This document shows, piece by piece, positions 22,489 to 63,999 of a stretch of DNA of 64,000 nucleotides. The position numbers were made by a program, and so were the translations under genes. The stretch's first letter is position 1; each line of letters begins with the position of its first letter. The stretch is taken from the NCBI GenBank assembly GCA_051294375.1, contig CM119268.1, positions 20,316,531 through 20,380,530 on the forward strand, in the 5' to 3' direction. Below the pieces are notes generated by a model. The model saw only the letters and a program-made list of their open reading frames with translations. It did no database searches and had not been told where the DNA came from. This stretch comes from Paraspadella gotoi. Taxonomy: Eukaryota; Animalia; Chaetognatha.

Positions 22489-23176
22489 CTAAATTCGCCT
22501 CCTGTATAGCTTGATGAAACTCAGCTCATCCCATTGGTTTGGACAGCTAAGAACTCGTTCACCAACCGTGAGTTCCGGGTTCAATCCCCTCACGGACACG
22601 TTGGTTAAAGTGATGGTGTCAGCATAAACACGCCAGTAACATAGGGTGGTCACTGCAGGTCCAAAGCCCTGAGCGCCATCTGTCGGGAGATGCTTCACTC
22701 CCTGGGCATCACACATGTCTCCCCGTTGCCATAAGTAGTCCTATTATCGAACACACCACCGCTGCTTACTGTCGCTCACGTTATCGCTTAAGGGTATTCA
22801 TCCCATGCCTATGCCCTACTTCTTGCTCGCTCTTTAACTGTGGCAATGAGTCTGACTACTCTCAAGACAGTCATTCTGGGCTTGAGGACCCCAGTGTGCT
22901 GTCTTGGGGGGGGCATGTATGGAGAATCTTAAATTTGCCTCCCGTATAGCTTAGTGAAACTCAGATCGTCCCATTGCTTTGGACAGCTCGTTCACTCGTT
23001 CACCAACTGTGAGTTCCAGGTTCAATCCCCTCACGGACACGCTGGTTAAAGTGTAATGGTATCGGCATAAACACGCCAGTGATATGGGGTGGTAACTGCA
23101 GGTCCAAAGCCCTAAGCGCCAGCTGTTGGGAGATACTTCACACCCTGGGCATCACACATGTTTCCCCGTTGCTATA
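22489..23176 (+). mobile_element. Miniature LTR element, family 2 (tRNA-like cassette plus twister motif in both LTRs)
   Basis: Direct repeats ~22489-22733 and 22916-23176. A G-run PPT precedes TGTATGGAG at 22916. B box GGGTTCAATCCC. Twister motifs at ~22600-22680 (GATGG..TAA-ACAC-GCC..CAGG-TCCAAAGC-CCTG) and 23041-23123. PBS is not clearly recognisable. Confidence 0.78.
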
Positions 23177-23579
23177 TATGTTTCATATTCCTACACGTTT
23201 TTATTTACAAAACAATTTTTATATATATAGACGAGTTCAGCTATGCAGCAGCTGTACAAAAATAATTAAAGTTGTAAAGAAGAAATTATGATAAGTCAAT
23301 CATTAATTATTTATCTATTAATTGAACCACAAACAAATATACCAATGTAAAATATTAATATTAAACCTTTAGGCAATATAACAAAAATTAATCTAAGCTT
23401 AATACGAATATGACAATATGCAAATGAGATTGAAGAACTTGATCTCATTTGAGATTATCTACAAATTAATCTGTTTTCCGTCGCAGCTTCTTCTGATTCG
23501 TCTAAAAACGAGTTTGCTCTGCAGCGGCTGTCCAGCTTCTCTCTAACTCATATACGCATTTGTTGGTTTTATTTAAGAT

Positions 23580-23823
23580 GAATAACTATCATCGCATCAA
23601 TGAATGACTATCATCACATCAATGACTATCATCGCATCAATGAATGACTATCATCGCATCAATGAATGACTATCATCGCATCAATGAATGATTATTATCG
23701 CATCAATGAATGATTATCATCGCATCAATAAATGATTATCATCGCATCAATAAATGATTATCATCGCATCAATGAATGATTATCATCGCATCAATGAATG
23801 ATTATCATCTCATCAATGAATGA
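23580..23823. repeat. 21-bp minisatellite (ATGAATGACTATCATCGCATC-type; also 15455-15560)
   Basis: Visible tandem units within DINE family C. Confidence 0.9.
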
Positions 23824-24383
23824 TTTTTACATGACAACCTCAGGGCTCGAACCAGGGACGCACATTGGGATGGTGCATTAGTCCACTGAGGCGCTGCAAA
23901 AGAAACAGCCTTAATCCATCTGTGGTGATAGGACCACCAGACAGCCGCCCCCAGGACTCTTACATATGAGAGTACGAAGCAGGGGATGAAGTGCATGTCT
24001 CTCTGCTGAACCTCTCTTCATTCTGGTGGCCTATGCGTTGAGTGGCAGCTCAAACCACATCAAGGGCAGAGGAGTATTATCATTCCCGGTTTGCGTGTTC
24101 AGATAACGTCGGGCTCACCATTGAAGAGGCTGGTTTTATAAGGCGCCACACCCGCAGTGGTATCACCTCGTGGCGACAGCGAGACAGCATGTTCATGTAG
24201 TCCAGAGCTTTGGATCTGGCAGTAGGCCCTTGCCTACAGGCGGGTTACCCAGTCCATCCCACTTTTTACATGACAACCTCAGGGCTCGAAACAGGGACGC
24301 ACATTGGGATGGTGCATTAGGCCACTGAGGCGCTGCGAAAGAAACGGATTTAATCCATCTGTGGTGATAGGACCACCAGAACA
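23824..24383 (-). mobile_element. Miniature LTR element, family 4 (5' LTR 24383-24122, PBS, truncated 3' LTR 23943-23824)
   Basis: On the - strand: TGTTCTGGTGG...CTCTTCA-A-TGGTGAGCCCGACGT, the same PBS as family 1. G-rich tract before the second TGTCTGGTGG. B box GGTTCGAGCCC. Twister motif at 24194-24272 (CATGTA..GATGG..TAA-CCC-GCC..CCAGA-TCCAAAGC-TCTGG..TACATG). Confidence 0.82.
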
Positions 24384-24871
24384 TCAATAATTTATTATCG
24401 AATCAATCATTCGTTTTTTTTTGTTTTTTTTCATTAATTTTTTTTGATAGTAACATCTGGCGAGATCACTATACTTTAAGATTTTTTTTTACCTAGTAAA
24501 TAAAAAATCTAGCTATATTTACTATTTAGTACACTCAATGACAAGCATAAAATTTCTGAATTTATGTTCTTCTTTAGAAGCCTTTCTGTGCCGAATGATC
24601 TAAATAAAAAGATGCACGATTACGCGAAGAAATTATCCTTTCGCCAAAGAAAGGATGACGCCAAAGACAGCGTCCCTCGCAAGAATCAAAACGGTTGGTT
24701 GACCTTTGCGTTTTTTCGGTCGATAAATCCTTCGATTCTACTAATATTCGAAAGTTTTACTCATTTTTCAACTTTAGTTAGCCGACGGTACACAATAAAA
24801 TCATTCCTTTCTCCAATCTCCATCCTTTTTTCCTCTTCGTCCCACACTCCGCCTTTCGACCCAATCTAGCG

Positions 24872-27800
24872 ATGACCCGTATCCTCCCCTCTTTCCGGCA
24901 CGCCTCCCTCACCTCTCCCTTTCGACGTCACTTTCGCAAAACGTGCCTCAACTCGGCGCCGGACGAGCGCTCTTCCCGGCGCCGATCGAGGACAGTTTGG
25001 AAGATCGGCCAGCGGTCACCGTTCCGGCGCACGGGGGCCTCGAGCAGCCGCCCGTTTGTCCGAGCATCCGGCAATTTTCTTCCGTACGCCACAAGCCCCG
25101 TTCTGTTCGGGATAACGTTAATTGTTAAATTTGATTTTTCAATTGAAAATTGGTATTAGAAATTAGTTTATTAGTTTATAATGGCAACGGGACATTTTAC
25201 CAACTGGCATAGGGGTTGCGGACCCTCGTTGACCGGCTCCTGTTCCTTGCAATGTTTAAACCGGTTCCGTCACATTTAGCCAGAGTATCGGAATACCCAG
25301 GAATCAAACCCGGGACGCACGGTCGCGGCGATGTGACTTTGCCTGCTCAGGCATTAGATGCGTCAGAAGGCCAACCGAGTTAAGGCGGTTTTAAGTCGTA
25401 GTATCATCACTTATATTCTTCCTCGAATTTGATTTTATTAGAATTATCGACGCCCCTCTCCTCGCGGCGCGTCTCCCCGCCAAGCGACGTTTGTCTTTTT
25501 CTCCTTGCCCCGCGACGCCTCGCGACCTCGACGCGGCGGAGCCGGAAGGCGCTGCTACTCCTGCTGCTCTCGGCGCTAGGTTGAGGGCGGACGTCAGTGA
25601 CGCGTCCCTCTCGAGTGAAAAGGATGATGAGGCACCTGTTCTTCGCTTTCTCAAAGAGGCCGCCGAAGCCGACGACTATTCCGATATCACCGACGCCACT
25701 GCACCCGCTGTCGCTTCTTCAAACGAATCCAATTCCCCGATCGCCGCCTCGCGTCGCTGCCTCAACGAGAGGGCGCTCCTCAACCTTTACGACGCCGTTG
25801 GATCCGAAAACGTCCACATAAGAGACTTTGCCGTCAACGGGGTGGTCGACCGCCCGGTTCTTGGGAGTTCTCCTCATTTCTGGAGCGGAGTCGGGGGCCG
25901 CTGGAGTCCGACAGGGCGAGCAGTCTCACTGAGGAATATAGGTCACGTTTCTGGATCCTATTCGCGAAACGGTGATGCTGGGATGATGTCACCTATTTTG
26001 TTAGCGAATGAAATCTGTTACTGAGATTGGCCCGTCATAAGTTTTCTCAGATGATCAAATTCGTATGTCACTCAAACGCTCAATAATAAGAAAAATGATT
26101 ATAAAAGAATAGTAAATAATAATATGTATTTATTATTAATTATTATTTTTATTATTTATTATTAATAAACACATCTGGCAACATGCCTCAACTTGGTGAC
26201 GCATTTTCCACCAACAACAATACACTGAAGAGACGCAACAGACTTCTCCCTATGGGAGGGGGGGATGTATGGTGGACTAAAATCCACCAACCGTTCATCA
26301 GCGGCCATTGGTGCCGGAGGCAAGTCATTCGCCTCCCAACCCAAAAGGTCCGGGGTTCTAGCCCGGTGGTCGTCTGGGGGACGGGGCGCTTAACCCGCCT
26401 GTAACATGGTGTTACAGCCTGATCCGAAGCTCAGGGACTGCTTATATTGAACGGTTCTGTCATTAACACATATCAATAATTACTGTCTCTTCAATATGTA
26501 ATTATGGTTTGCGACGATATTGTAACGCTTTTGCGCATAAGAGGCGTCGTCGTCGTCGGCGTTCCAAATTATAGATCGCCTTTTTTATAATTAAATTTGG
26601 GTGTATGAAGCTGAAAATTTATATACAGCTTCTCATCATCGATGTGCTTAAAATTGGGTCAGGACAGTTATTAAATATGTTTTGTTTACATTTTATCAAA
26701 ACAAACAAATTTCCTCTTTTATTTTTATGTTTTCTTCTCTTTCTCTTTTAATTATATTTAGCTCTCTCTCTCTCTTTTCCCCAGTGCTGATTCATCGAAA
26801 AAAAAAACGAATCTGCAGCTGGCTCTGCAGGGGCTCTTTTTCTCTCTTTTTTTCTTCTGCTTTTTGAGTTTGCAGCTGGCTCTGCAGGGGCTCTCTCTTT
26901 TTCTCTCTTTTCTCCTGCTGCTTCTGCTGCTGCCTTTTGTTTTGATTTTTCTTTTTTCTCTCTCTGCGTCTTTATTAAAAAAAAATTGAATTAGGATTTA
27001 ATTAGGCATCGCATTCGTGCATGTTATCATTTTGCTATGGCAACATCGGGTTTTTATTTGGTTTTTTTTTCTCGGGGACTGCGTCTGCTGATTAGTTTAT
27101 TTTTTGACAATGAAAAAGTTTTTTTTTTCCTTTCCTTTTTTTTCAGAAACTGTAACTTTAATTTTCTTTGGTACTTTATTATTTTTTTAAATTTACAATC
27201 GCAAAATAGAATTTTTCTTTCTGTTTATAAATTTTTTTTTTCTCATTTTATTTTTTTTAGTATCAAAATTTGTTGTTCATCCAGATTTTTCTTATGCGAC
27301 TGCTTTTAAGATTTTTACTATAATAATCGTTCGTGATAAAACCATTATCCTATGATGTGCATTTCCTCAAATCTTTCATTTGACAAAGTGCGTTTTTCCC
27401 TTTCGTACATCAAGCTTCCTCCGTTTCCCTGTCTCCTCGCCAAGACCAACTGGCCGTCCAGTGCGGCATCTGCGGCAAAATCTACGTGAGGACCTGGCAT
27501 TTAGCCAATCACATGCGAATCCACGACGGCAGGGTCTTTCGATGCAACTTTCCCGGCTGTCGTTCTACCAAGGTGTGGGTGGGAGGATGGAGGTTGATCT
27601 TGCCAACTAGTCAACTACTCGATTTTCAATATTTTTTGGGTTCTTTTTGTAGGGTAATTCGAAATACTGTCAAATAAAATAATTAGAATAATTATTACTG
27701 GTGCAATTAATATTCTATCATGTTTGTACTTCCCCACCAACAAGTGAGCATCTGCTCTGCAAACGCGACATCTCCCGAGAGAAAAACGAAAGAAAAATCC

Positions 27801-30800
27801 TCCTCTTTCCCGCCTTCTCTTCCCCATCCCGTACGCTACCTCAGTACGCAGCCACGAGACAACCACTTCTTTTGTTCGCGCTTTTGCGCTTAGTCTCCCG
27901 GCTTTTTTAAAAAAATATTCTTTGAATTAATTTTGCATTTTTTTCGTTTTTTCGTGTTCTCTCAGAATACAGATATTCTTCGACACGTGGCGGTTTGAAA
28001 TTTTTCTTTTCACGGCCGCCATTTTTCCGTTTTTGTTGTGCGTGGCTGCAGGGGGAGAACCTTGATTCTTTCCCCTTGTTTGCTCTCGACGCACCCTGCG
28101 CAGCTGCGGGGGGAAGAACTTTGCTTCGGCCCCCTTGTTTGCCCTGTGCGCACTGTACCTGGCTGCGGGGGTAGCACCTTGTTTCTGCCCCCTTGTTTGC
28201 CCGGTACACTACGGTTTTTGCACTGAGGTGCGTGTTATTCAACTTGTCTACCCTCATTCTTTTCCGCCTTCGTCGCCGCCTCCACCGCCAGCCATTCCGG
28301 GCTGTTCTGGTCAGGCCGAAGCCATGCCTTCTCAGATGGAGACAGTTCTTCTCCAAATTAGCAATGCTTTCTTTAGCGTTCGTCGTGATTTTAAGGAGTT
28401 TCGTCGCTCGTCTCGTTCCGAGTTAGTCTTCGGCGGTGAGTTCCTCTTTGCGTTTTTGTTTTTTCGCCTTTTTGGAGTACATTTGGCGTACAGAGGGGTT
28501 TTCCTCCTGTGCCCCACCTAACTCGACTATTTGTTTTTGTCGGCTTTCGCCTGGTCTTGTTACAGGCTCACTTGTTGGTGGGGAAGAACTACATGATAGA
28601 ATTTATGGTTCCAAATGGAACCGGGATTCTTCATGGTTCTTCCCCACCAACAACCAACCACCGTCCACCCCTGGCACCACTGGTAGTGGAGGGCGGCTCA
28701 GGCTTGCTTGTTTTTGCTTGGTGGGGTGTTTGGGGGTTTTTTTTGAGACCATAATTTTCAATGATTTCTCTTTTTTTCCATGTACGTTTTCTTCATGGTT
28801 CTTGGATGCCGTCGGTATTCATTCTTACGCCAGCGACTTGGAGTCTTCGCGTTCTCTGGCGGCCTCTTCGGTGGCGGATTGGCCTTCACGCCTTTCTCAT
28901 CAAGCCACATCTGCGCGAGTCGACGACGACGCCTCTGTTTCTGGATCAGAGGAGGGTTCCTCCTCTGAAGAGTCTGTTGAGGGGTTTGACAACTTCCTGT
29001 CTTGTCGTGCTTCTGTACAGCCTCCGGAGTGGATGTTACAGCAGTGGAGGTATTTGTGCAGAGTTGGCCAAGACGACATACTTTTACCGTTAGACATTTT
29101 TCCTGCCAACGTGCGTTTCAGGCGCTGGTCGGATGCTTCTTTGCCAGCGGAATTTTGTCCTGCTCGAGTTGCCTTACCGTTCAGTTCGATGTCGTTCGGA
29201 AGGACCCCAAGACGACGCGCCCTTTCAAGGCTTTTGAGCACATCATGAGAGATGCCGGAGCGTCCGCTCATGCTGTCCTTTGTCGCTGATGCTCTCCGCC
29301 TCATGGTTGATGCTCTTTGCTAGGAGGGGCCCGGAGCAATGGACGCAGGCCACCTTGATGATCTTGCCAAGCCCCTTGGAGACGCCTCGTCGGGTTTGGG
29401 GGCGATTTTTGGTTTGGCCCTCTCCGAGATTTGATCTCAAGACAGTTCTGTCCAGTTCCCCGCCCTCCATGGCGTTCTTTTTCGAAGACTGCTTTACAGA
29501 TGTCACTCAAGCGTTCCATTCTTCGCTTTTCCGCTCCGGGGCACCACTCAATTGCACCTGTTCTGCTAGCCACATGCGTGGGTGTGGCAGTCTGCGTAGT
29601 CCCGCTCGCCGTCCCTACAGGCTTTGAAGTCTTCGCCGCCTCCGAAGCATAGGGGCGGGGCTTCATCGACGTCAAAGGACGCTGACTGATCGCCCAACAG
29701 CTCTTTCGGCCGTTGCCTCATCCGGCCGTCAGTTTTCCAGACCCGGTTTTTGTCCATGGACTGGTTTTTGCGGCTTCTCATCCCCCCCTTCTACGATGTC
29801 CGGTCAAGTGATTGTCTGATTCTGTCTTGTGGCTGCGTACTGAGGTAGCGTACGGGAGGGGGAAGAGAAGGCGGGGAAGAGGATTCCTCTTTCGTTTTTC
29901 TTTCGGGAGATGTCACGTTTGCAGAGCAGATGCTTACAGGTTGGTGGGGAAGAACCATGAAGAATCCCGGTTCCATTTGGAACCATAAATTCATCAACTT
30001 GTCTTTACATATTAAGAGCTACAGCATTCCACTGCTGCTGCTAGGGTAGCTAGTGTTTAGGGCGATGTCGCGAGCAGAGGGATAAAAACGTATATATCAA
30101 CCTGTAGCGGGGACACTCTTCTATACAGAAGGCTTCATATTATAAAATGTAGTACTCCTTTATTGTGACCAGAATCTGTTCCCACCAAACTACCCAATCG
30201 AATTTAATGAAATTTTACATTTAGAGTGCTAATAACTATATAAATGAAACTATTTTGATATTCAACCCCTGACAAGAGATACAGGGCCCTGGGGGTGGAC
30301 CCCTGGGGGTGGACCCCTGGGGGGCCAAAAAATGCTAAATTTTTTTTTTTTTTTTCAAATTTTTTTAGTATCATCAGGTGCATTGACGTTTAAAACATAA
30401 GAAAAAAAAATTTTAGAACTAAAATTGATAAATTTGCAATAATTAAGCATGGTTGAAGATGCATTGTTCATCGTTTTACTTCCAATTTCCCGAAATTATT
30501 CCAAATCTGACTATTGATGTTCATGAAGCTAAAAATTATGGTAAATGAATATTTTTGAGGTAATAAATACGTTTTTGTGGAAGAGTAAACGTCTGTGCAA
30601 CTGTTTAAAACAAAAATAATAAAAAATTTTTTTAAAAATTTTTGACCATAAGTGGCAATGAATGGAGAAAATTGGCTTGTAAAATCGGGTTTCATTTTCT
30701 AACTCACTTTTTTAGATTCAATTTTTTTTTCTTATTTTCAGTTTTCTAAAGAAATTTAAAATAAAATAATATTAATATTATTATCTTCTGAAAGCCCTTT

Positions 30801-33443
30801 CAAATCTAAAGAGAATGACATACTTGCTAATACTGTAGTATAAAATTTAACCGGCCCAGCTTTAATTTAACTAGGATACTCAAAAACAAGACATCTTTCT
30901 AAAAATCAATAGCTGGAGGGTAAATTTAAGATTTTTATCAAATTGTGATTGGCTATCTTAAATCTCCTTTTTTCAGGCTCTTTCATGATACTTATATAAA
31001 TAATAATATTTTATGTTATAATAATTTAATCTGGTCATATATTTTAAAAAAAGATTTAAAATTTTAGATAATTAACTTTTGACTCTCTTAATTGAACCAA
31101 GGCTGGGCAGCTTAATTTTTATGTTGGAGCTTTCGTAAGTATATCATTCTCATCATTTTTTTAAGGGCTTTCTGAGGATATTAATATTGTTAATATCTTA
31201 ATAAATACTTTGTTTAAAAAAGAGCTAAAAGTTGAAAAAAAAAAAGAATTTAAAAACAGTGAGTTGGAAAATGAAACCCGATTTTACAAGCCAACTTTCT
31301 CCACTCATTGCCAAGGCATATCTTAACTGATCAATATAAAATTTAAAATTTAATATGTTCTACTCAACTAATTTTTAAAATCAATGAAATAACCACTGGT
31401 TTGAAAATGACAGCGTATTTCTACCGGCGCTTGTAAAATTGTCACCATGTATATATCACTATAATTTTTTTTAAAAATAAATTTATATCTTGAAAAATTT
31501 GATTATTTACTAAAGTGTTCCGTGTTACCCCGCACAACTCTATCGTGTGTCTTTTACATGATTGTTCGCTGATAAGATGAGTTCGTTTTACCCCTGATAT
31601 GTTTTGGTTTTTTTTTTTTTTTTTGAAAAAGGCGATATTTTATTATATTTTTATCAAGGTCGTTTTCATCGTCGTCGTCCACTCGCTCTCGAGAGTCACT
31701 TGGATTCTGGAGTTGTTTACGACTCTCGTGAACGGGGTTCTTGTTATTCTCGAGGGGAAAATGTGTCCTTCATAAAGTCGTCGTTGCCGGGCTTACCGAT
31801 TCGAGGCTCGGCTCCATAGTATTATTACGAATTCCTGACTGTTACCACAACAAAACAATATCGATGTTTCATGCTTCGAATTAGTGATTTTTATCGAATT
31901 TCAGCCCGGGCTCGAACTCGAGACTTAACGGGAGCGCGTTGAACTGACAGTAAAAGCTAGAACGATGTGGCGTCGCTGAGAGATCGACCTCCTTTGGGAC
32001 GCGCGAAGGAAGGGGGGGGGCAACATCGTGGAGAGCTTTTTTTACATGTGATTCAGTCTTCAGATGATGAAAAAAAAAGCAAATAGGAATTCGTTGGTCG
32101 GTTTTTTATTTTCGATTCTTTTAAGATTTGACGGACAGCATAGAAAAAAAAATAGTGAAAGGATAGCGACTATATTATTGCTTACCCGTACTTGCCTCCC
32201 CACCCACTTACCTGTAACCCCTCACTCATAACTCAAAAAAACTACCAATAGTATTGTGGCGGTATATTCACACCGCCTCACGTCCACCATCCTTCAGCCA
32301 AATACATTGGCTCAGAGGGGGAACACACCATCCCAGGCGTAGTGTTCCATCCACAGTCCTAACGACTTCCCTCTGTGTTGGCAAAGCGAGACCGTCCTAG
32401 GGTAACCGCGCCAGTGACTGGAGGCATCACTGAGGGTCGGAAGCCCCCAAAGCCAACAGTGAGATGCCCCATCCCAATGCGCATCACAGGCAACCCGGCT
32501 CTTGCCATAGTATCTTCTTTGTCCACGATTTTGAGGATTGACCAAATGAAGTCCCGCTCCTGCCTGTCCAGGGCTACCTAACCTGCGGCAGCCTCGACCG
32601 TCACAAGCGCCTCAAGCACGATTCGGTGAATTGGCGCAACCACGAGGAGAGGGTGAGGCGAGGCGAGTTGTGCAGCGTCAAGCGACGGGAGATGAAGGAC
32701 GAGCAGAATCCTCGCAGGTACTTACATTACGCTGTAATTCAGATCAAGATGACTCTTCTAGCCCCTTTAAATACTTTTTTCGCAGGTGCTACTCTGATTC
32801 CTGGTTCCATTTCCCGCCATTCGATTATGCTCCTGGCGGCGTATCTCAGCCGGCGCCGAGCCGGGTTTCTCCTCCTCCACTGCCGCCGCCAGCGTCGTCC
32901 CCTTTTTTAGTACATCTCGGCAACGCGGGGAGGAACTCGGCCGCCTCCGTGGTATCGACTTCGCCAACCGTTTCTTCAGTCCCGTTTTCGACCGTTCTCA
33001 TGCCTTCCTCGCCCTTCGGGATCGCTCCTCTCTTTACGACCGAACAACATCCGTTAACCCTCCACGATGAGACGCCGCCGATCTTTGAGCGGCCTTATTC
33101 TCCCTCGGTGTTCAGTAACGTCGCCACAGACGTAGTCGTCAGTACTTCCGACGGCGTCGCCGGCGTCGATTCTTCCATCGCTTGTCAAAATCTCGACCCC
33201 GACTTCGAGGACCTCGCCGGCTCCGCCCAATCGTGGATCGGAAACAGCGTCGCCGAGCGGTTTTTCGCTGCCCACAGTGGAGGTAGCGGCGTCGTCCCTG
33301 ACGAAAAGCAAAATGCTCCGCTGCCGGATTTACCGTTTGGTTCCTGGATTGCCGGCGCTGAATCCTCAGCGTCGGGCCACTCCAATAACAACAACAACAA
33401 TCCACTTTTCTTTTTGAAGAACGCGACCATTAATATTGTCTGA
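24872..33443 (+). CDS. C2H2 zinc-finger protein (two fingers; 5' exons tentative)
   Basis: Exon ~27415/27445-27572 encodes CGICGKIYVRTWHLANHMRIH and CNFPGCRSTK. Splicing to 32572-32717 (GYLTCGSLDRHKRLKH) completes the second finger across a 5-kb intron. The last exon 32786-33443 is Pro/Ser-rich. Upstream GC-rich ORF blocks 24872-~25083 and ~25443-~25970 are probable but their splice sites are uncertain. Confidence 0.7.
25178..25406 (-). mobile_element. Solo LTR-like copy, family 5 (tRNA-like cassette plus degenerate twister at 25204-25283)
   Basis: - strand reads ...CCCGGGTTTGATTCCTGGG...CTGGC-TAA-ATGT-GACGG-AACCGGTT-TAA-ACAT-TGC...AGGG-TCCGCAAC-CCCT-ATGCCAG...CCCGTTGCCA. The end matches family 2. 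Boundaries are approximate. Confidence 0.65.
26168..26493 (+). mobile_element. 5'-truncated family-1 element (part of interior, PPT, 3' LTR 26266-26493)
   Basis: Near-identical to 53110-53444; GGGAGGGGGGGA-TGTATGG...CTCTTCA. The twister lacks the CAGTTAAGA segment (5' strand of P5). Confidence 0.85.
27712..29992 (+). mobile_element. DIRS-like (tyrosine-recombinase retrotransposon) non-autonomous/degenerate element
   Basis: Inverted terminal repeats at ~27729-27861 and ~29823-29952 with unique outer extensions. An internal complementary region at 28566-28651 is the reverse complement of the joined ends. ATTC is shared at both termini. The interior has broken ORFs; no RT or YR motifs were recognised. 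Confidence 0.85.
30653..31312. repeat. Foldback/MITE with long imperfect inverted repeats
   Basis: TGGCAATGAATGGAGAAAATTGGCTTGTAAAATCGGGTTTCATTTT vs AAAATGAAACCCGATTTTACAAGCCAACTTTCTCCACTCATTGCCA. Confidence 0.75.
32255..32509 (+). mobile_element. Solo LTR, family 3, with twister motif at 32377-32457
   Basis: TGTGGC...GCCATA flanked by the 4-bp TSD GTAT. A box TGGCTCAGAGG and B-like GTTCCATCC. Twister reads GTTGGC..GACCG-TCCTAGGG-TAA-CCGC-GCC-[CAGTGA/TCACTG]-AGGG-TCGGAAGC-CCC..GCCAAC. Confidence 0.85.
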
Positions 33444-34801
33444 ATGTCGCATCAGATATTGTTTAAACTTTAACCACACATTGGCATAATTAGATTTAGA
33501 AATAATATAATTCGAGATTTTCTTTTTGAATTATGTGTGTGATTTACAAATCACATATGGTGAGTCCGCAACTTAGAAAATAGTGCGGAAAAGAGACCTC
33601 TTTTTTTAACTTATGTTCAGTCATTAGCAACAGAAACTTAAATAGTCAACTTAAACTTAAGTTGAAAACATTTTCTCAGAGGTTGAGCTATATTTCCTAC
33701 CAGTTAGCTATGGTATGCATTTAGCTTTGCCTCACTTCAAAGGAAAACTTTGTTTGCTTCCAAACTAGATTGTTTAATGTTTAACTGTGTAGGAGATTTT
33801 ACGCACTCTTGTACCAGTTTTAAGCATTTGCCGAGTTGAAAAAAAAAATTTATCAACCTTTTATTTATTTTTCTTTTACAGTATTTTTTTCGCGGACGCG
33901 ATTATTTACTGAAAATTGTTTTTCTTTTCTGTTTCGCAAACTTAATTGCGTCGTTCGTTCTTATTTCCTCCACTGCTGTTCTGTTATTTTTTATTGTCAG
34001 CAGTTTCAAATTATTTACAGCCTCAATGACATTGGCTGTCATTTTTACATTATTCCGCGAAAGGAACCTCTTACATAAAGGTTTTTCTTCGTATTTTCTT
34101 TTCAATTATCCTTTCCTTTCCTTTCAGACTTTTGTTTCTCTTGTCTAAATTCAAGTCCGACGAGAGCATCGCTCCTCCATCTACGCCGCCCACGTTTACT
34201 AGACAGACACACAAAGCCAAACACATCACAAGCAGCGTGCACAGCGGCCGGCCGAACTGCGCCTCCGTCGCCGCGAATATATGTCACAGAATCTCGACCA
34301 CACCCACGTTATTTGGAATCTCACTTTCGTTGCGCCCACCAGACCTTAAAAGGTAAAAAAACTGAGTTAAGTGAGTCAGGCGTTGCTCTTTTTTTCCTCT
34401 TTTGGTCGAGGCTCTTACCATTTCTTCTTTTTTTTCTGCTTCGATCTTTGGTACAAAACCTGGGGAATTACCTTTTTCGCTCGATTTTTTCCGATAGACG
34501 ACGACGACGACCACCATGACGACGATAGTATTAATACGTCGTTGGTTTCTTATTGTGAATGAGAATCGCGTTGATTCCATTAATATGCCGCCCTTGGATA
34601 TCGAAGTGCTTGACCGATTAAATTCAATAAAAAATAATCCCTGCGCTGAAATTATCTCAATTAGAAGTCAAATAAGAACCTAAGCTCTCTGCAAAAAAGT
34701 GACATCCGCAATCTTTTCATAGCGACGTTTGCCCATTATTACAGCGCCTCCACTCCACTCCTCTCCTCCACTCCACCCTCCAGTCGCCTTCCGCTTCAAT
34801 T

Positions 34802-37996
<3,195 letters not shown>

Positions 37997-41700: not shown

Positions 41701-43310
41701 GTCCGATTAAAGCAAAACTTGAGATTTACAATATTCCCGTCATTCCACATCTATCGATATAAAAATATAAGAAAAAAGTCACTGGCTTCTTTTTCTATAG
41801 CGGCTTCCTATATTTCATCAACCTTTAAACCTTTTAGTCAAACGACCCCACCTCGACATTTAAACTTCTCCGGACACTTCTACCGTCGAAAGAAACTCCT
41901 TCCTTCTTCTTTAATTCGCCGCGACATTGTAGTCTCCAATTGCCCATTGACTGAGAGTGTTGTCTGGTCTTCGACAAACGATTCCACCTGCATTTCTAAA
42001 CTAGGAGGGAGCAAAGATTGGTCGCCTTCCTACCCTTTGGGGCTGCCGTCCCCACCGGCGTTGCGAACTCCCGTGGCACTGCGATCCCCTCCGGTAGTGC
42101 GGTCCCCTTCGCTTGTTGGCTCTTCGATAATTATGCGGTCTGACGGAAGAAACAAGGTTCCGGCTTCAAGTCCCGACTTGAAAAAAGGTCCTGACTGAAG
42201 TTTAATTTTCTTTTTTGTGCGTAATGCGTTGCCTTTTTATCGTTTAAGTTAAATGCCCAAATTTTTTCTTCTTTTTCTGCAGCGATACATGACAGCAACT
42301 CCTCAACGACTTTTGCTTCTTTTTTGCGAAAGACTAGGGTTCGTATTGGCACAGAGTTTTGATAATAAAACGAATTGTTATTTTCTTTTATGTTTGTTTA
42401 ATTTCCTGTTAAAAAATGATTAAAAATATGAGCGTCTGTTTTTTGCTGTGGTTTTGCACATAAGTGGCGTCGTCGTCGGCGGCGTTCCAAATTATAGATC
42501 GCCTTTTTTATGATTAAATTTGGGTGTATAAAGCTGAAAATTTATATAAAGCTTATCATCGATCGATGTGCTTAAAATTGAGTCAGGACAGTTATTAAAT
42601 ATGTTTTGTTTACGTTTTATCAAAACAAACAAATTTTCTCTATTTTATTTTTATATTTCTTTCTCTCTCTCTTTTCCCTAGTCACTGATTCATCGGGAAA
42701 AAAACGAGTCTGCAGCTGGCTCTGCAGCGGCTTATTCTTTTTCTTTCTTTTCTCCTGCTGCTTCTGCCGCTGCCTTTGAGTCTGCAGCTGGCTCTGCAGG
42801 GGCTCTCTCTTTTTCTCTCTTTTCTCCTCCTGCTGCTGCTTTTTGATTTCTTTATGAAATTGGTACAACCAATATAAAAATTATCCATTCATTTAATAAA
42901 TAAGCTATCTTGCCCCTGACTTTGGACAGGCTTTGGTGGTTTAAGGCCTCCATCACTCTTACAAGATAATGACATTGCAGGTCCCTGCAAGTTTTCAATC
43001 AAGACTCTCTCACAGTCTTGTTTATTCACTCCCAGAGTACCTGGCTTCCCTATCAATGAAGTGGAAAATATTTCAAAGAATGTTTCAATTGTATGAAAAG
43101 ACCACTCCCTTAAGTATTAGATCGGGGAATACTTATTGTACTCCGCACTAGCATCAAAATACAAGGAGCTGAATTTTATGAAATTGGTACAACCAATATA
43201 AAAATTATATATATATATTTTTTTCTCTCTTCTCTCTCTCTGCGTTTTTATTTACAAAAAAATTGAATTAGGATTGAACTCGTAAAATTAGGCATCGCAT
43301 TCGTGCATGT

Positions 43311-43573
43311 TGTGGCGGTATATTCATTTTTCATTATTCACACCGCCTCACGTCCACCATCCTTCAGCCAAATCCTTTGGCTCAGAGGGGGAACACACCA
43401 TCCCAGGCGTAGTGTTCCAACCACAGTCCTAACGACTTCCCTCTGCGTTGGCAAACCGAGACCATCCTAGAATAACCGCGCCAGTGACTGGAGGCGTCAC
43501 TGAGGGTTAAAAGCCCCCAAAGCCAACATGCCCCATCCCAATGGGCATCACAGGCAACCCGGCTGTTGCCATA
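43311..43573 (+). mobile_element. Solo LTR, family 3 (degenerate twister), inserted in a DINE-like element
   Basis: Homologous to 32255-32509. The 4-bp TSD ATGT restores the host sequence GCATGTTATC. Confidence 0.85.
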
Positions 43574-44254
43574 ATGTTATCATTTTGCTATCGTGCTGAT
43601 GCTTTTCGCGCGGAAAAAGAAGTGACGCGTCTGTCGGCACAGCAGCACTTCGACGGGGACCCGCAGCGGCGGGGCGGACGATGCTGCAGCGCTGCACCAA
43701 AAAAAGATACTTTTTCGATGGTTTTTTGTTTTCGTTTTTTTCTGATGCACTGCGCGGTAGTCTCGCCTTTAGTGAGACAAAAGGCATTTGTGGGGGGGGG
43801 GTTCGATCAAGAATCGTGATTCCATTTGGAGTCTAAGATTTTGCTATGCAACATCGGCTTTTTATTTCTTTTTTTTTTCAGGGGCTGCATCTGCTGATTA
43901 GTTTATTTTTAAAATTGATTTAGGAAAAACAGTTTTCTATACATAATAAAATTGATTTAAATTAACAATCGCAAAATCGAATTTTTCTTTGTTTACAAAT
44001 TTATTTATTTGACAATGACAAAAAAAAATTTTTCATTTTTTTTATTTATTTATTTTGTTTTTCAGAAACTATAACTATAATTTTCCTCGGTACTTTAATA
44101 TTTTTTTTAATTGACAATCGCAAAATGTAATTTTTATTTCTGTTTATAAATTAATTTTCTTTTCTCAAATTTTATTTTTTTTAGTATCAAAATTTTTCGT
44201 CAATCCAGATTTTTCTTATGCGATAGCCACGATCCTTATGCTTTTAAGATTTTT

Positions 44255-44374
44255 TTCTTTATCTCTCTCTTTCTTTCTCTCTCTCTTTCTTTCTCTCTTT
44301 ATCTCTCTTTCTTTCTGTCTTTATCTATCTCTTTCTTTATCTATTTCTTTCTTTTTATCTCTTTTTTTTCTTTT

Positions 44375-44418
<44 letters not shown>

Positions 44419-44595: not shown

Positions 44596-44788
44596 TCCAC
44601 ACCCTGTTTTTCTTGATAGTTTATTGATTGAGTATTTAATGATTTTAATCGTTTAAATTTTGTTTTACCGTGAAATCCTTTTTTTGCTCGTTATTTTTTT
44701 TATTTACTTTTCACATTACTTAAACCGGCCTAGTAAACAAAATTTGCATTTCCACCTGGCAATTTATTTACCATTTAATCATAAACAG

Positions 44789-46033
44789 CGACGTCTCGCC
44801 TGCCGCTCCAAGTCGACTTTCAACGAAGACGACGACTCAGTCAGCGAAGACTATCGCTCGTCGCCGAAAGAAAATCAGCGGAAAAGAGTCGAACCCTTGG
44901 ACGCTCGAAAAGGAGACCTCCTGCGACGGGTGCACACCACGAAACCCAGACCCTCTGCCAGTAAAAACAGAGCCAGTATGGCGAAGGAGAGAACGAGTTC
45001 GAAGATGTCGCGAATCACCTGGGGCGAAATCGAAGAGGACAGGGTCTACCTCAAGTATCAAGCCAAAGAGGGAGGACGACTTTACGTTAATGGGAAGGAC
45101 CTGAAGACCCTCAAGCGCGGACACCTTATTAACGACAGCATTATTGACTTTTATCTGTGTTACTTAGGTATGGAGATCGGAGTACTTGTAATTTGTTTTA
45201 TCTTTGCATTTATTCTTAACTGACGAATTTCGGATATGCCTCGTTTTCAGTCAACGACTGCCTTCCCTTGTCATCCCGCATCCACGTCTTTAGCAGCTTC
45301 TTCTTCAAGCGTCTCGTCTCCAAAAACAACCGTTCAATCGCCGACGACTTGACGACTTCGGCTCGACGCCACGCGGGCGTCAAGAACTGGACCAAGGACG
45401 TGGACGTCTTCGAAAAAGATTTTTTGGTCGTGCCCGTCAATCGAGGAATGCATTGGTTTCTCATTATCGTTTGTCTAAAAGAGAGATCCAGGGAGACTTC
45501 CTCGTCCGGCGACGAAGCCATCGCGGCGCCCAATCTCTTCGCCCCCGTGGCTTCGGCGCCCAGAGGGTCCTACCCTTGCATCGTCATCTTCGACTCGCTC
45601 GGGGCGCATTCCGGCGCCACCGACTACTGCGCGTCCGTCATTCGGTCTTATTTGGAGGAAGAGTTTAAGAGGAAACACGTCGGGGCTGAGAATGAGAGGG
45701 ATTTTCGGAGTGAGTGAGGGGGGGGGGCAAGGGAAGGAACTGATTGTGGGCAAAGTTTTGGAAGGGGGGAGCGGAAATTTGAACAGAAACACCATTTCTT
45801 TCTCAGCGACTCTACCCTGGTATTCGCCCCGCCTCCCCCTCCAATCCAACGGCGTCGACTGCGGAGTCTTCGTCCTCCATTACGCCCAACTCTTCCTCCA
45901 ACAGCCCTTCAAAGATCCGGCGGGAGATCATCGTCGCTGGTTCGACTCAGCCGATGTCGCCCTCAAGCGGGCGGAGATCGCCCGACTCATTATGGATTTG
46001 GGCGGCGAAGGTGGAGGAGCTGCTCGGGCTTAA
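44789..46033 (+). CDS. Ulp1/SENP-family SUMO protease (peptidase C48), SENP6/7-like; 3' exons
   Basis: Exons 44789-45167, ~45251-45709 and ~45807-46033 join in frame. Motifs INDSIIDFYL, HVFSSFFFKRL, VKNWTKDVDVFEKDF, HWFL (His), FDSLG (Asp), QSNGVDCGVF (Cys). Confidence 0.9.
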
Positions 46034-47619: not shown

Positions 47620-50600
47620 ATGACGAGCCAACGCTCGACCCTCGTCGACCACGACGAGCTCGCCGAACTCGCCGACGACGAGCAGGTGTATCGAAACCAA
47701 GACGGACAACCACCTCCGGTTCTTCAAGTAAGAAAAATCAGATCGTCTCAGTAACGAGTAATGACAATTGTAAAATTACAGTCCTGTGCAAGAAAATCCT
47801 AAATAGCACGTGTTTCATTCATGAATTCAAACAAATTTTAATTGGTTAATAGAGCTCCGGAGATAATATAAAATTTCTCATTATAAAATTTTTTTTTAAA
47901 TCTTAAAATTTTTTGATGTATTCTGATAGAGCATAAAAAGTTAAACATGAAATATAATTACATCTTTTAAAAATTCTTACATTTTCTAAGTGAAAATAAA
48001 AAAAACTGATAAAATCATTGAAAGATGATGATTTTTTATGGTTTTTCTTATTTTTGACTCATCATGAAAATATTTGAAAAAGAAATATAATTTGTGCAGA
48101 CAACTTTTTATGAGCTATCTGAATCTGGTCTTAAAATTTAAAAATTATCAAAACAAATTTTGGCCTTTCCTGTCTATAATTAAATATTTAAAAAATAATT
48201 ATTTGGGTATAGAGCCATAAAAATTTAGACATTTTTAAGGATACTTTCAATGGACAAAAAAATTTTAATATGGCTCTATACCCTAGTAATTCATTTTTTT
48301 AATATTTATAGATATTTATAGATATTTATAGAATTTTTAAATTTTAAGACCAGATTAAAATAGCTCATAAAAAGTTGTCTACACAAAGTATAATTCTTTT
48401 TTAAATATTTTTACGATAAGTGTGTCAAAAATAAGAAAAACCGTGAAAAATCATCATCATCTTTCGATGATTTTATTAGTTTTTTATATTTTCACTTAAA
48501 AAACGTAAGAATTTTTAAAAGATGTAATTATATTTCTTATTTAACTTTTTATGCTCTATCAGAATCCATCAAAAAATTTTAAGATTTAAAAAAATTTTTG
48601 TTTTGTTTTATATAGTAATATAATATTTTTAATTAGGCTAGTACCCTCAGAAGAAAGCATTTTTGATAAAAAATACTTTAATACCATAATCTATGGTCAT
48701 GATAGATTATTTTAACGCTGTATACATTAGCATTTAAATTTCATCGGCTATGGCTATTGAAAGTACACTTCAAAATGTATAAATTTTCGTTTGAGCATGT
48801 AATCATTCTAAATTTTTGCCTCACACCATTGAGTGGGGCGATGTGAAAATAATATTTTTTTTTAAATTTAAATTTAGTTTTCAAAATGAAAATTTTAAAA
48901 TTTCAAGAACGGATTTGGATTCTTTGCAAAAAGTTAATATAAGAAAATATAATTATTTTTTGAAAATTATTTTATTAAGTTGATCAAAAATATAAAAAAG
49001 TATAAAAGTATATATAAACGCTGATTTTTAATTTTCTGTTAAAAAATATAGTTTTTTATAATTTTAACCTACTTCATGATATAATTTTTATTATTTTCTC
49101 TCTTTTCGTTGCTAAGTGAATATTAGGAATTGTTTTTTGTTTGCCAATACAACGATTTTTATATATATATAAAAATCGTTGTATTGGCAAACAATAAACA
49201 ATTCCTGATATAATTTTTAAAAAATATTTACATTTTCCTTTATCAACTTTTTATGAAAAATCTGAATGTTCTTAAAAAACACTTTTAAAATTTTAACATT
49301 ATATAAGGGTAATATTATATACAAAATAAGCTGATTGGGCTATAATATGTATAAAAAAAATTATAGATTAGTATTTATTAATATGATAGTTTTCAAGATA
49401 TATCTGCTAAATTTTGATTTCAAACTTTTACTTCATTCTATGGTTAATGTAGATTTTTAAAAGTAGTATTTATATGTGTAAGTTAAAAAAAATAGGTCTA
49501 GCAACCGAAAGACAAATGGTCAAAATAAAAAAATGGGGGGAAAAATATTTTAGAAGATCTACAGTCCTGTGTAACAAAAAGGATACCCAAAAACATTATA
49601 AAAATAAATCACGTTAGATTTTTTTTAAAATAAAAGATATTATAAATGAATAATAGAGAGTCCGGACTTGAATCTTACCCCCCCCCATTTACCCCATACG
49701 CACAATTGTTTTACAACATTTAATTTTTTATCGCAGAAGAATCGTTAAGGATTTTTCTATCTTTTGGATTGTATTTAGTTTTGCTATATCGAAAAACATT
49801 AGTATGGGAAGCAACCGAAAACCAGCAGTCATGTTTGCTCCACGCCGAAATATTTAAAAATTGACTATATAAATATTTTCATTCCTGCAAAAGTTACAGT
49901 GATCAACCTTATGCGTTTCTTTATGGTGGTTTTGAGAGAGTACGGTTCATAGATTTCTCAAATAAAAAATCGGAGACCTGACGTTATTCTAACTAAATTT
50001 ATTACTACAAATTTTTACAGCATAAACAAATTAATACCGCAGCATTTACTAACATTTGTGATAATAAAAAAATATTCTGGATATGACCCCATCTAAGCAT
50101 TTTTAAGGGAAAAATACCATAATATTCATAAAAGGGAAATTTTAAAAAATTATAAATTATATTATCTACCTCTGTAACTTTTGTAATTAATTAGATAAAG
50201 AATTTGTACCTTGTGGGACTATTAAAAATGGAATTCTCAACTAAAATTAAAAATTTAAATCTTAAAAGAAAATTGAAGCTGCAGTATGCTGCAGTAACTT
50301 GAAGTACCATACAATTACCGGGATTAGGTCCCTGACTTATAAACCAACGATCTATGTTATTTATACAACATAATATACTTAGTTACTAGAATAAAATAAG
50401 ATTTCTTTTAATATAATTTCTCCAAATTTTGGCCTCAGGGCATTATGCCCTATATAATACAGTATCTAAATTCATTTGGATATTGCAGTATGGGGCGAAT
50501 TTAATGTAACTCTCAACAGTACTTGTAACCGTAATTACATCAATCTCGACCCATACACAGTGATACCAAGAAAGTAAAGATTTTTCATATCGTCTACTCG

Positions 50601-53600
50601 TCTCTGGAAGGGTCTTAGGTAAGGTATACTTCATAAATGAGTAGCTGACATAAGTAAAATGACCAATCAAATAATTGATGAAATTAATTTTTTTAGATAT
50701 ATCATTAAGTACAAATTTAAGTCCGAACCCTGTATTTATGGAAAAATTTGGTTAATCTATGGCTATCCGTTATGAAACTAATTTTTTAAATATAATTACT
50801 CTGTTTTAATTACTAAATACTCAAACAGAATGTGAAAGCAAAAAAAATTTGAATATTTTTAAAACCTCTTATGTTTATTGTTTAAGGTGTATTCATAATT
50901 TTTTTAAAAAACATAAATATAATGCTCATAAATTAAGGCGAAAAAAGTATCTTTGGTTTTTGGCAGATTTTCAAGAAATGGTTTTTGGAAGCGATTTAAA
51001 TGACAATTTTTTTAAATTTTATAATAAAGGAATCTAATAAGCTTTATTTAGGCAATGTTTTTATTATGTCCTCTTTTTTTTTTTGCACAGGTCTGTATAT
51101 TACATTTATGAAATTGCTACAATCAATATGAAAAATATATATTCATTTAATAAATAAATTAATTTAATCTTGCCCTGATTTTGGACACACTGCTGGTTTA
51201 TGGCCTGCATCACTTCTAAAAGATTATAACATATCAGAACCTTATTTATTCACTTCTACAGTACCTGGCTTGCTTATTAATTAAGTGTAATAATATTTTA
51301 AAAAATGTTTTATTTGTAAAATATTATTCCTTTTGTCCTTTCTTACGTCTTAATCTCCAGTTGCAAGAAGACTCGGCCTTCGATCATTCTTCTTCCGCCG
51401 ACGAATCTCCCCGCCCGACACCCGCCCCCTCCCATACTCCATCCTCGCTCGACAAGCGGGCGACAGCGGCGAATCCCTCCGCCGTTCCCTCGCAGGTCGT
51501 TTTTGTCAACCACGCCTTTCAACACGACAACAGTAAGTAGCAGAGTATGATTGAATGATTGGTATATTCGATTTTTGTTTGATTTGATTGATTGACTGAT
51601 CAAATCGATTGATTGATTTAACTACAGAAAACTTCATTTTGTTACCAGAACACGCCCCGAGAAAACTCATACCAAATTTATTGAAATTTGATATGAACGA
51701 TCCCTATGTTAATACAAATAGAACTATCGAGGCGAATTTCAATATTTGACCCCTGAGCTGAGATATGGGGCCCCGGAGGGGTCACCCATAGGGGCAAAAA
51801 ATGGTCAAAAATTTTTATCGTCGCAATTGCTAAGCGTTTGCGACGATATTGTAACGCTTTTGCGCAGAAGTGGCGTCGTCGTCGTCGTTGTTGTTGTCAG
51901 CGTTCCAAATTATAGATCGCCTTTTTTATGATTAAATTTGGGTGTATGAAGCTGAAAATTTATATACAGCTTTTCATCTTCGATGTGCTTAAAATTGAGT
52001 CTGGACAGTTTTTAAATATGTTTTGTTTACGTTTTATTTTCAAAACTAACAAATTTTCTCTCTTTTATTTTCATATTTCTTTCTCTCTTCTTTTCTCTTT
52101 AATTACATGTTCCTCTCCCTCTCTCTTTTCCCTAGTCACTGATTCATAATCATAGGGGAAAAAAACGAGTCTGCAGCTGGCTCTGCAGGGGCTTATTCTT
52201 TTTCTCTCTTTTCTCTTGCTGCTTCTGCTGCTGCCTTTTGATTTCTTTTTTTTTCTGGGTGTCTTGCTGCCGCTGAAAAATGATTTGGCTGTTTCTTTTT
52301 CTTTCTCTCTCTCCTGAAATTAATTTTTTCCTCTCTAAAAACTTTTTATTATCGCCATTTATTCAAAATTTACATCCAGATTTCGTGGATTTTTTTCGTG
52401 GATTTTTTTTTTTTTTTAAATTTTCTTTATTTTTCTCAAATTTGATTGTTTGGTATATCAAAATTTGTCGTCAATCCAGATTTTCTTATGCAATTGTCAC
52501 GATCCTATTGCTTTTAAGATTTTTTTCAATTGTTGCACAGACGTTTACTCTTCCTCAAAAACGTATTTATTACCACCAAAATATTAGTTTACCTTAATTT
52601 CAGCTTCATGAACATCAGCTGTTCAAGTCAGATTTTGAATAATTTGGGAAAATTGGAAGTAAAACGATGAACCATGCATCTTCAAACCATGCTTATTGCT
52701 TAATTTTTGAAAATTTATTAATTTTAGTTCTAAATTTGTTTATATGTTTAAAACTACCAAAAAATTTTTAAAAAATGAAAAAATGAAATAGTATGGTGGA
52801 CTAAAATCCACCAACCGTTCATCAGCGGCCATTGGTGCCGGAGGCAAGTCATTCGCCTCCCAACCCAAAGGTCCGGGTTCTAGCCCGGTGTCGTCTGGCA
52901 GTTAAGAGGGACGGGGCGCTTAACCCGCCTGTAACATGGTGTTACACGCCTGATCCGAAGCTCAGGGACTGCTTATATTGAACGGTTCTGTCATTAACAC
53001 TTATCAATAATTACTGTCTCTTCATTGGTGAGCCCGACTTCCGAACACAACAGCAACAACAACACTTTCAGGCGACATGCCTCAACCTGGCGATGCACTT
53101 TCCGCCCACAACACATCAGGCAACATGCCTCAACTTGGTGACGAACTTTCCACCAACAACAATTCACTGAAGAGACGCAACAGACTTCTCCTACGGGAGG
53201 GGGGATGTATGGTGGACTAAAATCCACCAACGCGTTCATCTATCAGCGGCCATTGGTGCCGGAGGCAAGTCATTCGCCTCCCACCCAAAGGTCCGGAGTT
53301 CTAGCCCGGTGGTCGTCTGGCAGTTAAGAGGGACGGGGCGCTTAACCCGCCTGTAACATGGTGTTACAGCCTGATCCGAAGCTCAGGGACTGCTTATATG
53401 AACGGTTCTGTCATTGACACTTATCAATAATTACTGTCTCTTCAATAGATTAACTTAAAAAGAAAAATATTACGTAAAGATTTGTGCAAATGTTTGATGT
53501 GTGGCATTTGATTTCGACTGATGACGATGTGAGCGATGCACCCCTTTTCCTTCCCCAGCATCCGCCCAGCTTTCCTCCACCCCCGCTCCTCGAGTGATAG

Positions 53601-60339: not shown

Positions 60340-61299
<960 letters not shown>

Positions 61300-63846: not shown

Positions 63847-63999
<153 letters not shown>

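Follow-up and report, generated by a model that had tools for sequence, protein, structure and literature searches.

Introduction

Small non-coding retroelements with long terminal repeats (LTRs) are described from plants and from animals, and those of plants known as LTR retrozymes carry a ribozyme in each LTR. We report here on a 64,000-nucleotide stretch of the genome of the chaetognath Paraspadella gotoi (contig CM119268.1 of assembly GCA_051294375.1, positions 20,316,531 to 20,380,530 of the forward strand), this whole stretch being referred to below as the window and numbered from its first letter. In it, five families of small non-coding LTR elements, A to E, appear to bear in each LTR a fold resembling the type-P5 twister ribozyme, and a sixth family, F, with the same fold is of a non-LTR, Penelope-like kind.

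In plants, LTR retrozymes (PMC4918200, Cervera et al. 2016) have a ribozyme in each LTR, a primer-binding site (PBS), a polypurine tract (PPT) and duplications of 4 bp of the target site (TSDs), and they give rise to RNA circles. Families A to E resemble them (see also PMC5680766, PMC7761336) in the ribozyme in both LTRs, the PBS, PPT and 4-bp TSD, the lack of coding capacity, the occurrence of solo LTRs and the presumed Gypsy helper, but differ in the ribozyme itself (type-P5 twister-like versus type-III hammerhead), in the PBS (of tRNA-Trp type versus tRNA-Met) and in size (~420–440 nt versus 600–1000 nt). By definition an LTR retrozyme has a type-III hammerhead in the LTR; A to E fall outside that definition and have the twister-like fold there instead. 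In a preprint of July 2026 (10.64898/2026.07.22.740005), LTR retrozymes are still described as carrying type-III hammerheads and as occurring primarily in plants, and both this preprint and reviews describe animal retrozymes without LTR, PBS or PPT.

The other close relatives in layout are the Helenus miniature terminal-repeat retrotransposons (TRIMs), or TRIMp3 (Kojima 2024, PMC10886601), non-coding elements of <1 kb arranged as LTR-PBS-internal region-PPT-LTR with a tRNA-like B box in the LTR. Animal Helenus elements have 4-bp TSDs, a Gypsy-type PBS (that of tRNA-Trp included), solo LTRs and several families per genome, and their transcription by RNA polymerase III (Pol III) has not been validated either (PMC10886601). 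[quoted passage not shown] They thus appear to combine the Helenus TRIM layout with a ribozyme. In the main text of the Helenus paper ribozymes are absent except in one reference title, and a search of its supplement with five octamers from loop L4 gave three matches, all in internal regions, line breaks being able to hide some; the vertebrate and bivalve Helenus sets in the supplement were covered by this octamer search only.

On the ribozyme side, the dimeric minimal hammerheads of Penelope-like elements and of a newt satellite (PMC6765202) likewise have a stem shrunk to a short palindrome and occur in tandem copies, but they belong to another ribozyme class, and A to E place their fold in true LTRs. 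The twister T-variants of Perere-3/RTE elements in Schistosoma (PMC8501958) also sit in a retroelement, but are of type P1 and occupy the 5′ terminus of non-LTR elements, one per copy. Our search of the full-text literature, with most subscription journals and Repbase outside its scope, yielded no twister in an LTR or TRIM, no animal LTR retrozyme and no dimeric natural twister. Within the literature searched, therefore, the ribozyme-LTR design is known in print only for plants, with a different ribozyme; new here are the twister-like fold in animal mini-LTR elements, family F with its swapped T2 pseudoknot, and a P1 cut down to a mostly palindromic segment.

Results

A twister-like fold in six repeat families

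Twelve copies of the fold, in families A to F, were found in the window with a model made from one copy per family; six of the 12 matches are its own training copies, and no further match was found in the window at an E-value of 1. The parts follow the order P5′, P2′, GA, T1′, short P1 segment, UAA, P2, T2, P3, P4, U.NNN.AA.NN loop, P4′, P5, which is the layout of the Rfam Twister-P5 consensus (RF02684), a permuted topology that is open in P5 and has P2, P4 and P5 stems. Part order, loop, the T1 pseudoknot and, in A to D and F1, the T2 pseudoknot are as in RF02684; a mostly palindromic P1 segment in place of a hairpin, T1 and T2 letters off the consensus, a score below the cut-off, and a 3-bp P2 with a bulge in A, B and F are not. 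We keep the name twister-like because the twister core is there but neither the Rfam score nor a normal P1 is.

The GA motifs lie on the plus strand at 26380, 52910 and 53332 and on the minus strand at 10952 in family A, at 24258 (minus) in B, at 32390 and, in a decayed copy, 43460 (both plus) in C, at 22612 and 23055 (plus) in D, at 25271 (minus) in E, and at 42954 and 51211 (minus) in F. All 12 copies have the UAA motif of the cleavage site, and ten have the catalytic G of GA, which is absent in A1 and D2. Three Watson–Crick pairs form the T1 pseudoknot in ten copies, among them all six family representatives, T1 being broken in C2 and F2. T2 directly behind P2, together with the L4 adenines, is present in A to D and in F1 (10/12 copies). 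One mismatch each in P2 and P4 was found in C1, and D1 has lost half of P2; natural twisters tolerate defects in P1, P2 and P4, and bulges (PMC11662667). In F, T2 is altered on both sides (AC/GT), a double change within the same compact fold. In family E, a GT located eleven bases ahead of L4, in the same register as T2 of F, could pair with the loop AC if an 18-nt insert were tolerated.

In a strict descriptor, the fixed letters are those of RA, TAA and the loop U..A alone, while P2, T1, P4 and T2 must pair; it had eight matches in the window compared to a mean of 0.035 (maximum 1) in 200 block-dinucleotide shuffles of the window; with the demand for T2 dropped, the numbers were nine and 0.275 (maximum 2). 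This descriptor is post hoc, having been designed once the sequence was known; it misses C1, C2 and F2, and E passes it only without T2. An earlier, loose descriptor gave no excess over shuffles in the window. No match to an Rfam hammerhead was found in the window.

Covariation of the paired parts

An earlier, sequence-only reading of positions 22600 to 53392 had claimed that a twister pseudoknot co-varies across five divergent LTR families. We take its families 1 to 5 as A (TCCG/GACGG), B (TCCA/GATGG), C (TCGG/GACCG), D (TCCA/GATGG) and E (TCCG/GACGG). The motifs that it quoted lie where it placed them, the T1 partner sets are as it gave them, and TAA is indeed kept in all five families, as are GCC and AAGC in A to D, not in E; the stems that it listed (GCAGT/ACTGC, CATGTA/TACATG, GTTGGC/GCCAAC, CTGGC/GCCAG) correspond to P5 arms, namely those of families A, B, C and E.

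In a MAFFT alignment of the six family representatives, 94.7% of 75 cells were paired and 10 of 13 pairs showed double changes, as none of 500 shuffles did, while partners displaced by 1–3 columns paired in 24–45%. The structure used for this count derives from the same sequences, relatedness inflates such counts, and six sequences are too few for a test of the R-scape type. We therefore also permuted the 3′ partners among the five families A to E. T1, with 15/15 pairs, was equalled by 4 of 120 permutations, P4 by 2, P2 by 12 and T2 by 24; jointly over T1, T2, P2 and P4 the figure was 1 in 200,000. With six families, perfect T1 pairing occurred in 12 of 720 permutations.

T1 has only two varying columns; taken alone it is modest evidence, and no other part of the support is as weak. 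Its commonest swap, CCG/CGG versus CCA/TGG (A and E versus B, D and F), is a CpG-type transition on both sides and hence favoured by mutation bias; the swap of family C, a double transversion, is the sole one free of this caveat. The claimed co-variation of T1 thus stands insofar as pairing is kept in all families, but carries little weight by itself. More is carried by the covariation across P2, T1 and P4 between LTRs that are only 59–68% alike from family to family and have true LTR anatomy, and it is on this that the claim of selection on the fold can be upheld. We consider it very probable that the twister-like fold is under selection.

Families A to E have the anatomy of miniature LTR elements

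The complete family A element (A3, 52790..53444, plus strand, 655 bp) consists of a 5′ LTR up to 53024, an internal region of 181 bp (53025–53205) and a 3′ LTR (53206–53444). Its LTRs are 99.6% identical over ungapped columns, its PBS, TGGTGAGCCCGAC, lies 1 nt past the end of the 5′ LTR, and a purine tract stands immediately 5′ of the 3′ LTR. The two twister-like folds (52898..52977 and 53320..53398, plus strand) have predicted cuts after U52921 and U53343, which would delimit a unit of 422 nt. A partial element (A2, 26168..26493, plus) retains part of the internal region, the PPT and one LTR with its ribozyme at 26369–26446. A solo LTR (A1, 10839..11071, minus; ribozyme 10886–10964) lies outside the range of the sequence-only reading.

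The family B element (23824..24383, minus) has a 5′ LTR at 24383–24122 with the ribozyme at 24192–24277 and a predicted cut after U24247, a PBS and LTR end that are the same as those of A, and a PPT; its 3′ LTR is broken off before the ribozyme and abuts a 22-nt tandem repeat (23556–23825), of which a second array lies at 15453–15594. By eye, the PBS of B corresponds in 16 of 18 nt to the tRNA-Trp PBS of Gypsy-32_NVi (Fig. S2 of PMC10886601), and that of A in 12 of the first 13. In the family D element (22486..23178, plus, ~700 bp), the 5′ LTR (start clipped) runs to ~22735 and is followed by a G-rich PPT and a 3′ LTR at 22916–23178; no PBS was recognisable in it. Its LTRs are 88% identical, and the ribozymes at 22595–22684 and 23036–23127 are 443 nt apart from cut to cut.

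Family C is represented by two solo LTRs, C1 (32255..32509, plus; ribozyme 32372–32461) with the 4-bp TSD GTAT, and C2 (43311..43573, plus; decayed ribozyme 43442–43531) with ATGT. C2 sits inside a long AT-rich host repeat with five copies in the window (13578–14810, 26492–27340, 42430–44260, 51833–52530 and 57418–58172), and three of the others provide empty sites (14142, 27013 and 57898); the copy at 42430 holds both C2 and F1, which makes the empty-site comparison possible. Family E is a probable solo LTR (25182..25410, minus) with indistinct ends and a ribozyme-like fold of non-canonical L4 and T2 at 25199–25289; the half with the ribozyme is thinly covered by contigs from the sequencing runs. 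Between B and E, contigs of run X9 skip 24692–24869 with GT..AG ends, which points to a spliced gene there; X9 may be an RNA run.

Taken together, the LTRs start with TG, A and B have a tRNA-Trp-type PBS, A, B and D a PPT, and C 4-bp TSDs, no clear TSD being seen in A, B, D or E, and no ORF of 120 aa lies within the A3, B or D elements. An alternative assignment as pseudo-LTRs of a Penelope element was rejected, since true LTRs are indicated by the PBS, PPT, TG start and 4-bp TSD. From the identity of 5′ and 3′ LTRs (88–99.6%) we conclude that the families were mobile recently. As many as 10,081 contigs of run X1 align to the A3 stretch, and 152 of these exit at the LTR end at 53024 into unrelated flanks starting with ATA; family B too is widespread, with many other genomic copies in public contig sets. 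The sequencing runs consist of contigs, and their summed depths are not taken as copy numbers. A contig joint that goes back within the element was rejected as a trace of an RNA circle, as DNA runs show it as well and it agrees with a layout of LTR, internal region and LTR. Metagenome contigs searched for the junction of LTR end and PBS gave two matches, both GC-rich, bacterial-looking and without the fold.

The heads of the LTRs (109–126 nt before the ribozyme) align weakly among A to E (z 1.0–5.6), and the tails do so only for C–D (z 4.4) and D–E (z 2.9); the head of family F shows no clear alignment to the other families (z −1.1 to 2.2). The old radiation that had been proposed for these elements is not shown; the weakly related heads fit common descent.

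A B box and a possible tRNA-like head before the ribozyme

A B box lies directly upstream of the ribozyme in A, B, D and E, 37–52 nt ahead of the cut site in the six copies measured (from A, D and E), and seven of the eight matches to the B-box pattern in the window fall in the LTR heads of these elements. With ARAGORN at relaxed thresholds of 80–85, a tRNA-Gly(CCC)-like head was called at 53246..53317 (plus), adjoining the ribozyme, and likewise in the other A copies and in the 3′ LTR of B; the relaxed call also occurred in 3 of 300 shuffles for A and 6–9 of 300 for B, and thresholds ≤75 give many false calls. Pol III terminates at runs of T, and the sense strands of A3 and D have no T4 run; this suggests, weakly, that Pol III reads through.

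P1 is short and mostly palindromic

Between T1′ and UAA, only 6–8 nt remain for P1, and hairpins forced on them have energies of +2.7 to +5.7 kcal/mol, so that none of the family representatives has the stably closed stem-loop P1 of a type-P5 twister. In four of the six representatives the central 4-mer is a strict palindrome, with four different sequences in A, C, E and F, for which the binomial probability is 2–3e-4 if the families are independent; in F1 the perfect palindrome extends to 6 nt. The B copy of the window is a wobble palindrome, and other genomic B copies are strict ones by virtue of position 24251 (at least 93% of the summed depth in four runs). Homoduplexes of P1 are predicted at −8 to −11 kcal/mol.

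The six prokaryotic P5 twisters that we could confirm with Rfam all have P1 hairpins of 18–23 nt instead. They were the ones to pass a structural filter and Rfam when four pattern scans of contigs from viruses and prokaryotes had yielded 84 loci, the three viral scans allowing P1 linkers of 4–14 nt only and the genome scan 4–30 nt and one T1 type; the remaining 78 loci failed and were dropped as chance matches. The six-family model gave two weak matches in 74 of the pattern-scan loci.

In family A, closing P1 within one copy would cost 3.9 kcal/mol, and a nearest-neighbour calculation without pseudoknots favours a strand-swapped pair with a 6-bp P1 between copies over two monomers by ~9 kcal/mol. 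Penelope hammerheads, which have a palindromic short stem, are cleaved as dimers (PMC6765202), and the palindromic P1 of 6–8 nt in most of our families suggests cleavage as a dimer too. That cutting actually depends on a dimer of two ribozyme copies is a tentative proposal that we consider rather less probable than its contrary.

Family F: Penelope-like remnants with the same fold

F1 (42851..43208, minus) is a non-LTR remnant with a terminal repeat of 34 bp; one end bears (TA)n, and the ribozyme lies at 42904–42970. A decayed copy, F2 (51105..51318, minus), was found by sequence comparison to have the same end, which is shared also by a 54-bp fragment (59087–59139). Three copies with one common end, the 34-bp repeat and (TA)n are features of Naiad/Penelope-like insertions, for which a tail repeat of 30–40 bp, a (TA)n target and a fixed 3′ end are described (PMC8557442); no ORF combining GIY-YIG and reverse transcriptase adjoins the F copies within the window. 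The five-family scope of the sequence-only reading must accordingly be amended: A to D fit, E is a doubtful member, and this sixth family was overlooked. As the fold occurs also in an unrelated non-LTR family, some of the covariation may be older than the capture of the fold by LTRs.

Discussion

A proposed twister-based LTR retrozyme

We lean slightly towards a reading in which families A to E work as twister-based LTR retrozymes, their Pol III transcript being cut in each LTR, circularised and copied with a Gypsy helper. Pol III would begin in the tRNA-like head of the 5′ LTR and continue through, and one twister cut per LTR would release a unit-length monomer of 422 nt in A or 443 nt in D; active cleavage by the ribozyme is likely. 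Since identical cuts in both LTRs would leave no terminal redundancy for strand transfer, the monomer would need circularisation, plausibly by RtcB, which circularises animal hammerhead retrozyme monomers in vitro (PMC7229834), and an RNA circle is moderately probable as the transposition intermediate. Primed by tRNA-Trp, reverse transcription would proceed round the circle and rebuild both LTRs, and a Gypsy-type integrase would insert the copy with a 4-bp TSD. In a less certain step, the palindromic P1 segments of the two LTRs would pair, so that cutting would need both LTRs and a circle with one ribozyme copy would stay closed.

This last step leads to a more speculative and rather doubtful extension, in which a dimer-only twister would act as a two-LTR AND gate in an animal lineage of Pol III LTR retrozymes, circularisation would replace strand transfer by an R region, and the module would come from a Penelope-like tail such as that of F. 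Pairing of P1 between the 5′ and 3′ LTR copies would create two strand-swapped active sites; only the full LTR-to-LTR transcript would be cut, and the one-copy circle would be safe from re-cutting.

The window itself contains a multi-exon gene of an RtcB RNA ligase (34800–38000, plus; Pfam RtcB on one exon, eukaryote-type), the enzyme class that joins ends such as twisters make. Its location is probably a coincidence, and we rejected it as part of the system, as it is a single host gene with no link shown.

Points that weigh against the retrozyme reading

A number of results tell against the twister-based retrozyme. None of the copies in the window reaches the Rfam gathering threshold (RF02684, 37.6 bits), the best Twister-P5 score being 25.8 bits (E-value 0.0042) for F1 in a local scan, with 18.8 bits for the first D copy. 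Family E is non-canonical: the conserved adenine of L4 is replaced by C, and T2 is absent from the canonical register. A minority of the A copies, making up 6–16% of the depth in X1 and X4, have another letter as their third T1 base, and no change of its partner appears among the differences listed for them. The strict B-box pattern is without a match in family C, whose tRNA-like signal is weak, and ARAGORN calls no tRNA-like head at its default threshold and only those of A and the 3′ LTR of B at 80. The absence of T4 runs from A3 and D, none being found where 1.5–1.8 would be expected, is weak evidence for read-through.

Other such points concern the structure. Both D copies and the window copy of B are not strict palindromes in P1, and since P1 is dispensable in twisters (PMC11662667, PMC5408937), a palindrome need not mean a dimer. 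Folded singly (z −0.1 to −2.1), copies of A and B show the layout and those of C to F do not. When the entire A3 transcript is modelled as an unconstrained ensemble without pseudoknots, P4 has a probability of 0.96–0.99, P5 and P3 of ≤0.16, and P2 and the inter-copy P1 of 0. The predicted circles are mildly structured (55–60% paired; z −1.7 and −1.35, energies not significant), compared to >70% paired reported for hammerhead retrozymes (PMC4918200). No helper element was found, no genome-wide search for one having been made. Finally, the anatomy and the covariation can be read directly in the DNA, while every biochemical step is one that we infer from it.

Alternative explanations

The mild structure of the predicted circles would suit an active twister that serves RNA ends only, an explanation that we hold to be unlikely but the most serious of the alternatives. 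The ribozyme of the 3′ LTR would trim read-through transcripts in place of the T-run terminator of Helenus, no circle would form, and the 5′ copy would often stay uncut, leaving a linear RNA with ~100 nt of terminal redundancy for ordinary transposition. By eye, published animal Helenus LTRs finish with a tRNA-like part and a T run, a place taken here by the ribozyme, and end processing is the role shown for the twister variants of Perere-3 (PMC8501958). Both LTR copies, however, have the same sequence, with nothing obvious to spare the 5′ one, and the layout matches that of plant LTR retrozymes, for which monomers and circles were seen (PMC4918200).

That F has the same compact fold in a non-LTR context raises the question of whether the fold is a passenger. 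An ancestral TRIM would have captured a piece of a Penelope-like tail like that of F, the motif being weakly active or irrelevant to LTR transposition, and the apparent covariation would reflect repeated capture from a pool of twisters together with CpG decay. The CpG nature of the commonest T1 swap, the non-canonical E and the damage to many copies in the window agree with this, but we regard it as quite unlikely: across five LTR families with tails that can hardly be aligned, P2, P4, P5 and T1 stay paired with different letters in one and the same position, a passenger would be expected to decay as its flanks do, and the differences listed for other genomic copies of B and E avoid GA, UAA, T1, T2 and P4.

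The palindrome, too, may be viewed differently, with monomers cutting themselves and forming circles, and P1 serving as a dimerisation signal by which two RNAs are packaged in the Gag particle of a helper. LTR elements package RNA dimers, and retroviruses have palindromes that initiate dimerisation. The dispensability of P1 for twister chemistry would leave it free for such a use; the same kind of palindrome in the non-LTR family F, and the palindromic short stem that Penelope hammerheads use for dimeric cleavage (PMC6765202), make a packaging signal very unlikely. Chance resemblance of ordinary GC-rich LTR hairpins to a twister, which scores below the Rfam cut-off and a post hoc descriptor might suggest, is extremely improbable, given the excess of descriptor matches over shuffles, the joint permutation result and the occurrence of every match at the same place in a repeat.

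Other features of the window

The window belongs to a eukaryote rich in introns and repeats. An element at 27726–29992 has inverted terminal repeats of ~136 bp and an internal 53-bp stretch (28599–28651) perfectly complementary to its right end, which recalls the internal complementary region of DIRS-type elements; its 270-aa ORF has no Pfam match. Long near-perfect hairpins at 19308–19406 and 49128–49203, with Rfam microRNA matches far below the cut-off, are probably miniature inverted-repeat elements. An intronless ARF6 of animal type lies at 60772–61299 (plus; 383 bits to ARF6 chains in PDB versus ≤288 for ARF1) and an exon of a Ulp1/SENP-type protease at 45268–45717 (plus); by eye, two short tandem membrane-protein-like genes occupy ~53600–54800 and a Ras-family gene seems to start near 63867.

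Implications

If families A to E do work as twister-based LTR retrozymes, twister ribozymes would have a concrete and testable job in animals, and LTR retrozymes would be known from an animal as well as from plants, and with a twister as well as with a hammerhead. One element would then unite three things so far described separately, the Pol III TRIMs of Helenus type, the circles of retrozymes and the dimeric ribozymes of Penelope-like elements. Should the twister also require two copies, it would show how rapid cutting by a ribozyme and a stable circular product can go together, a matter that bears on engineered circular RNA systems built on twisters.

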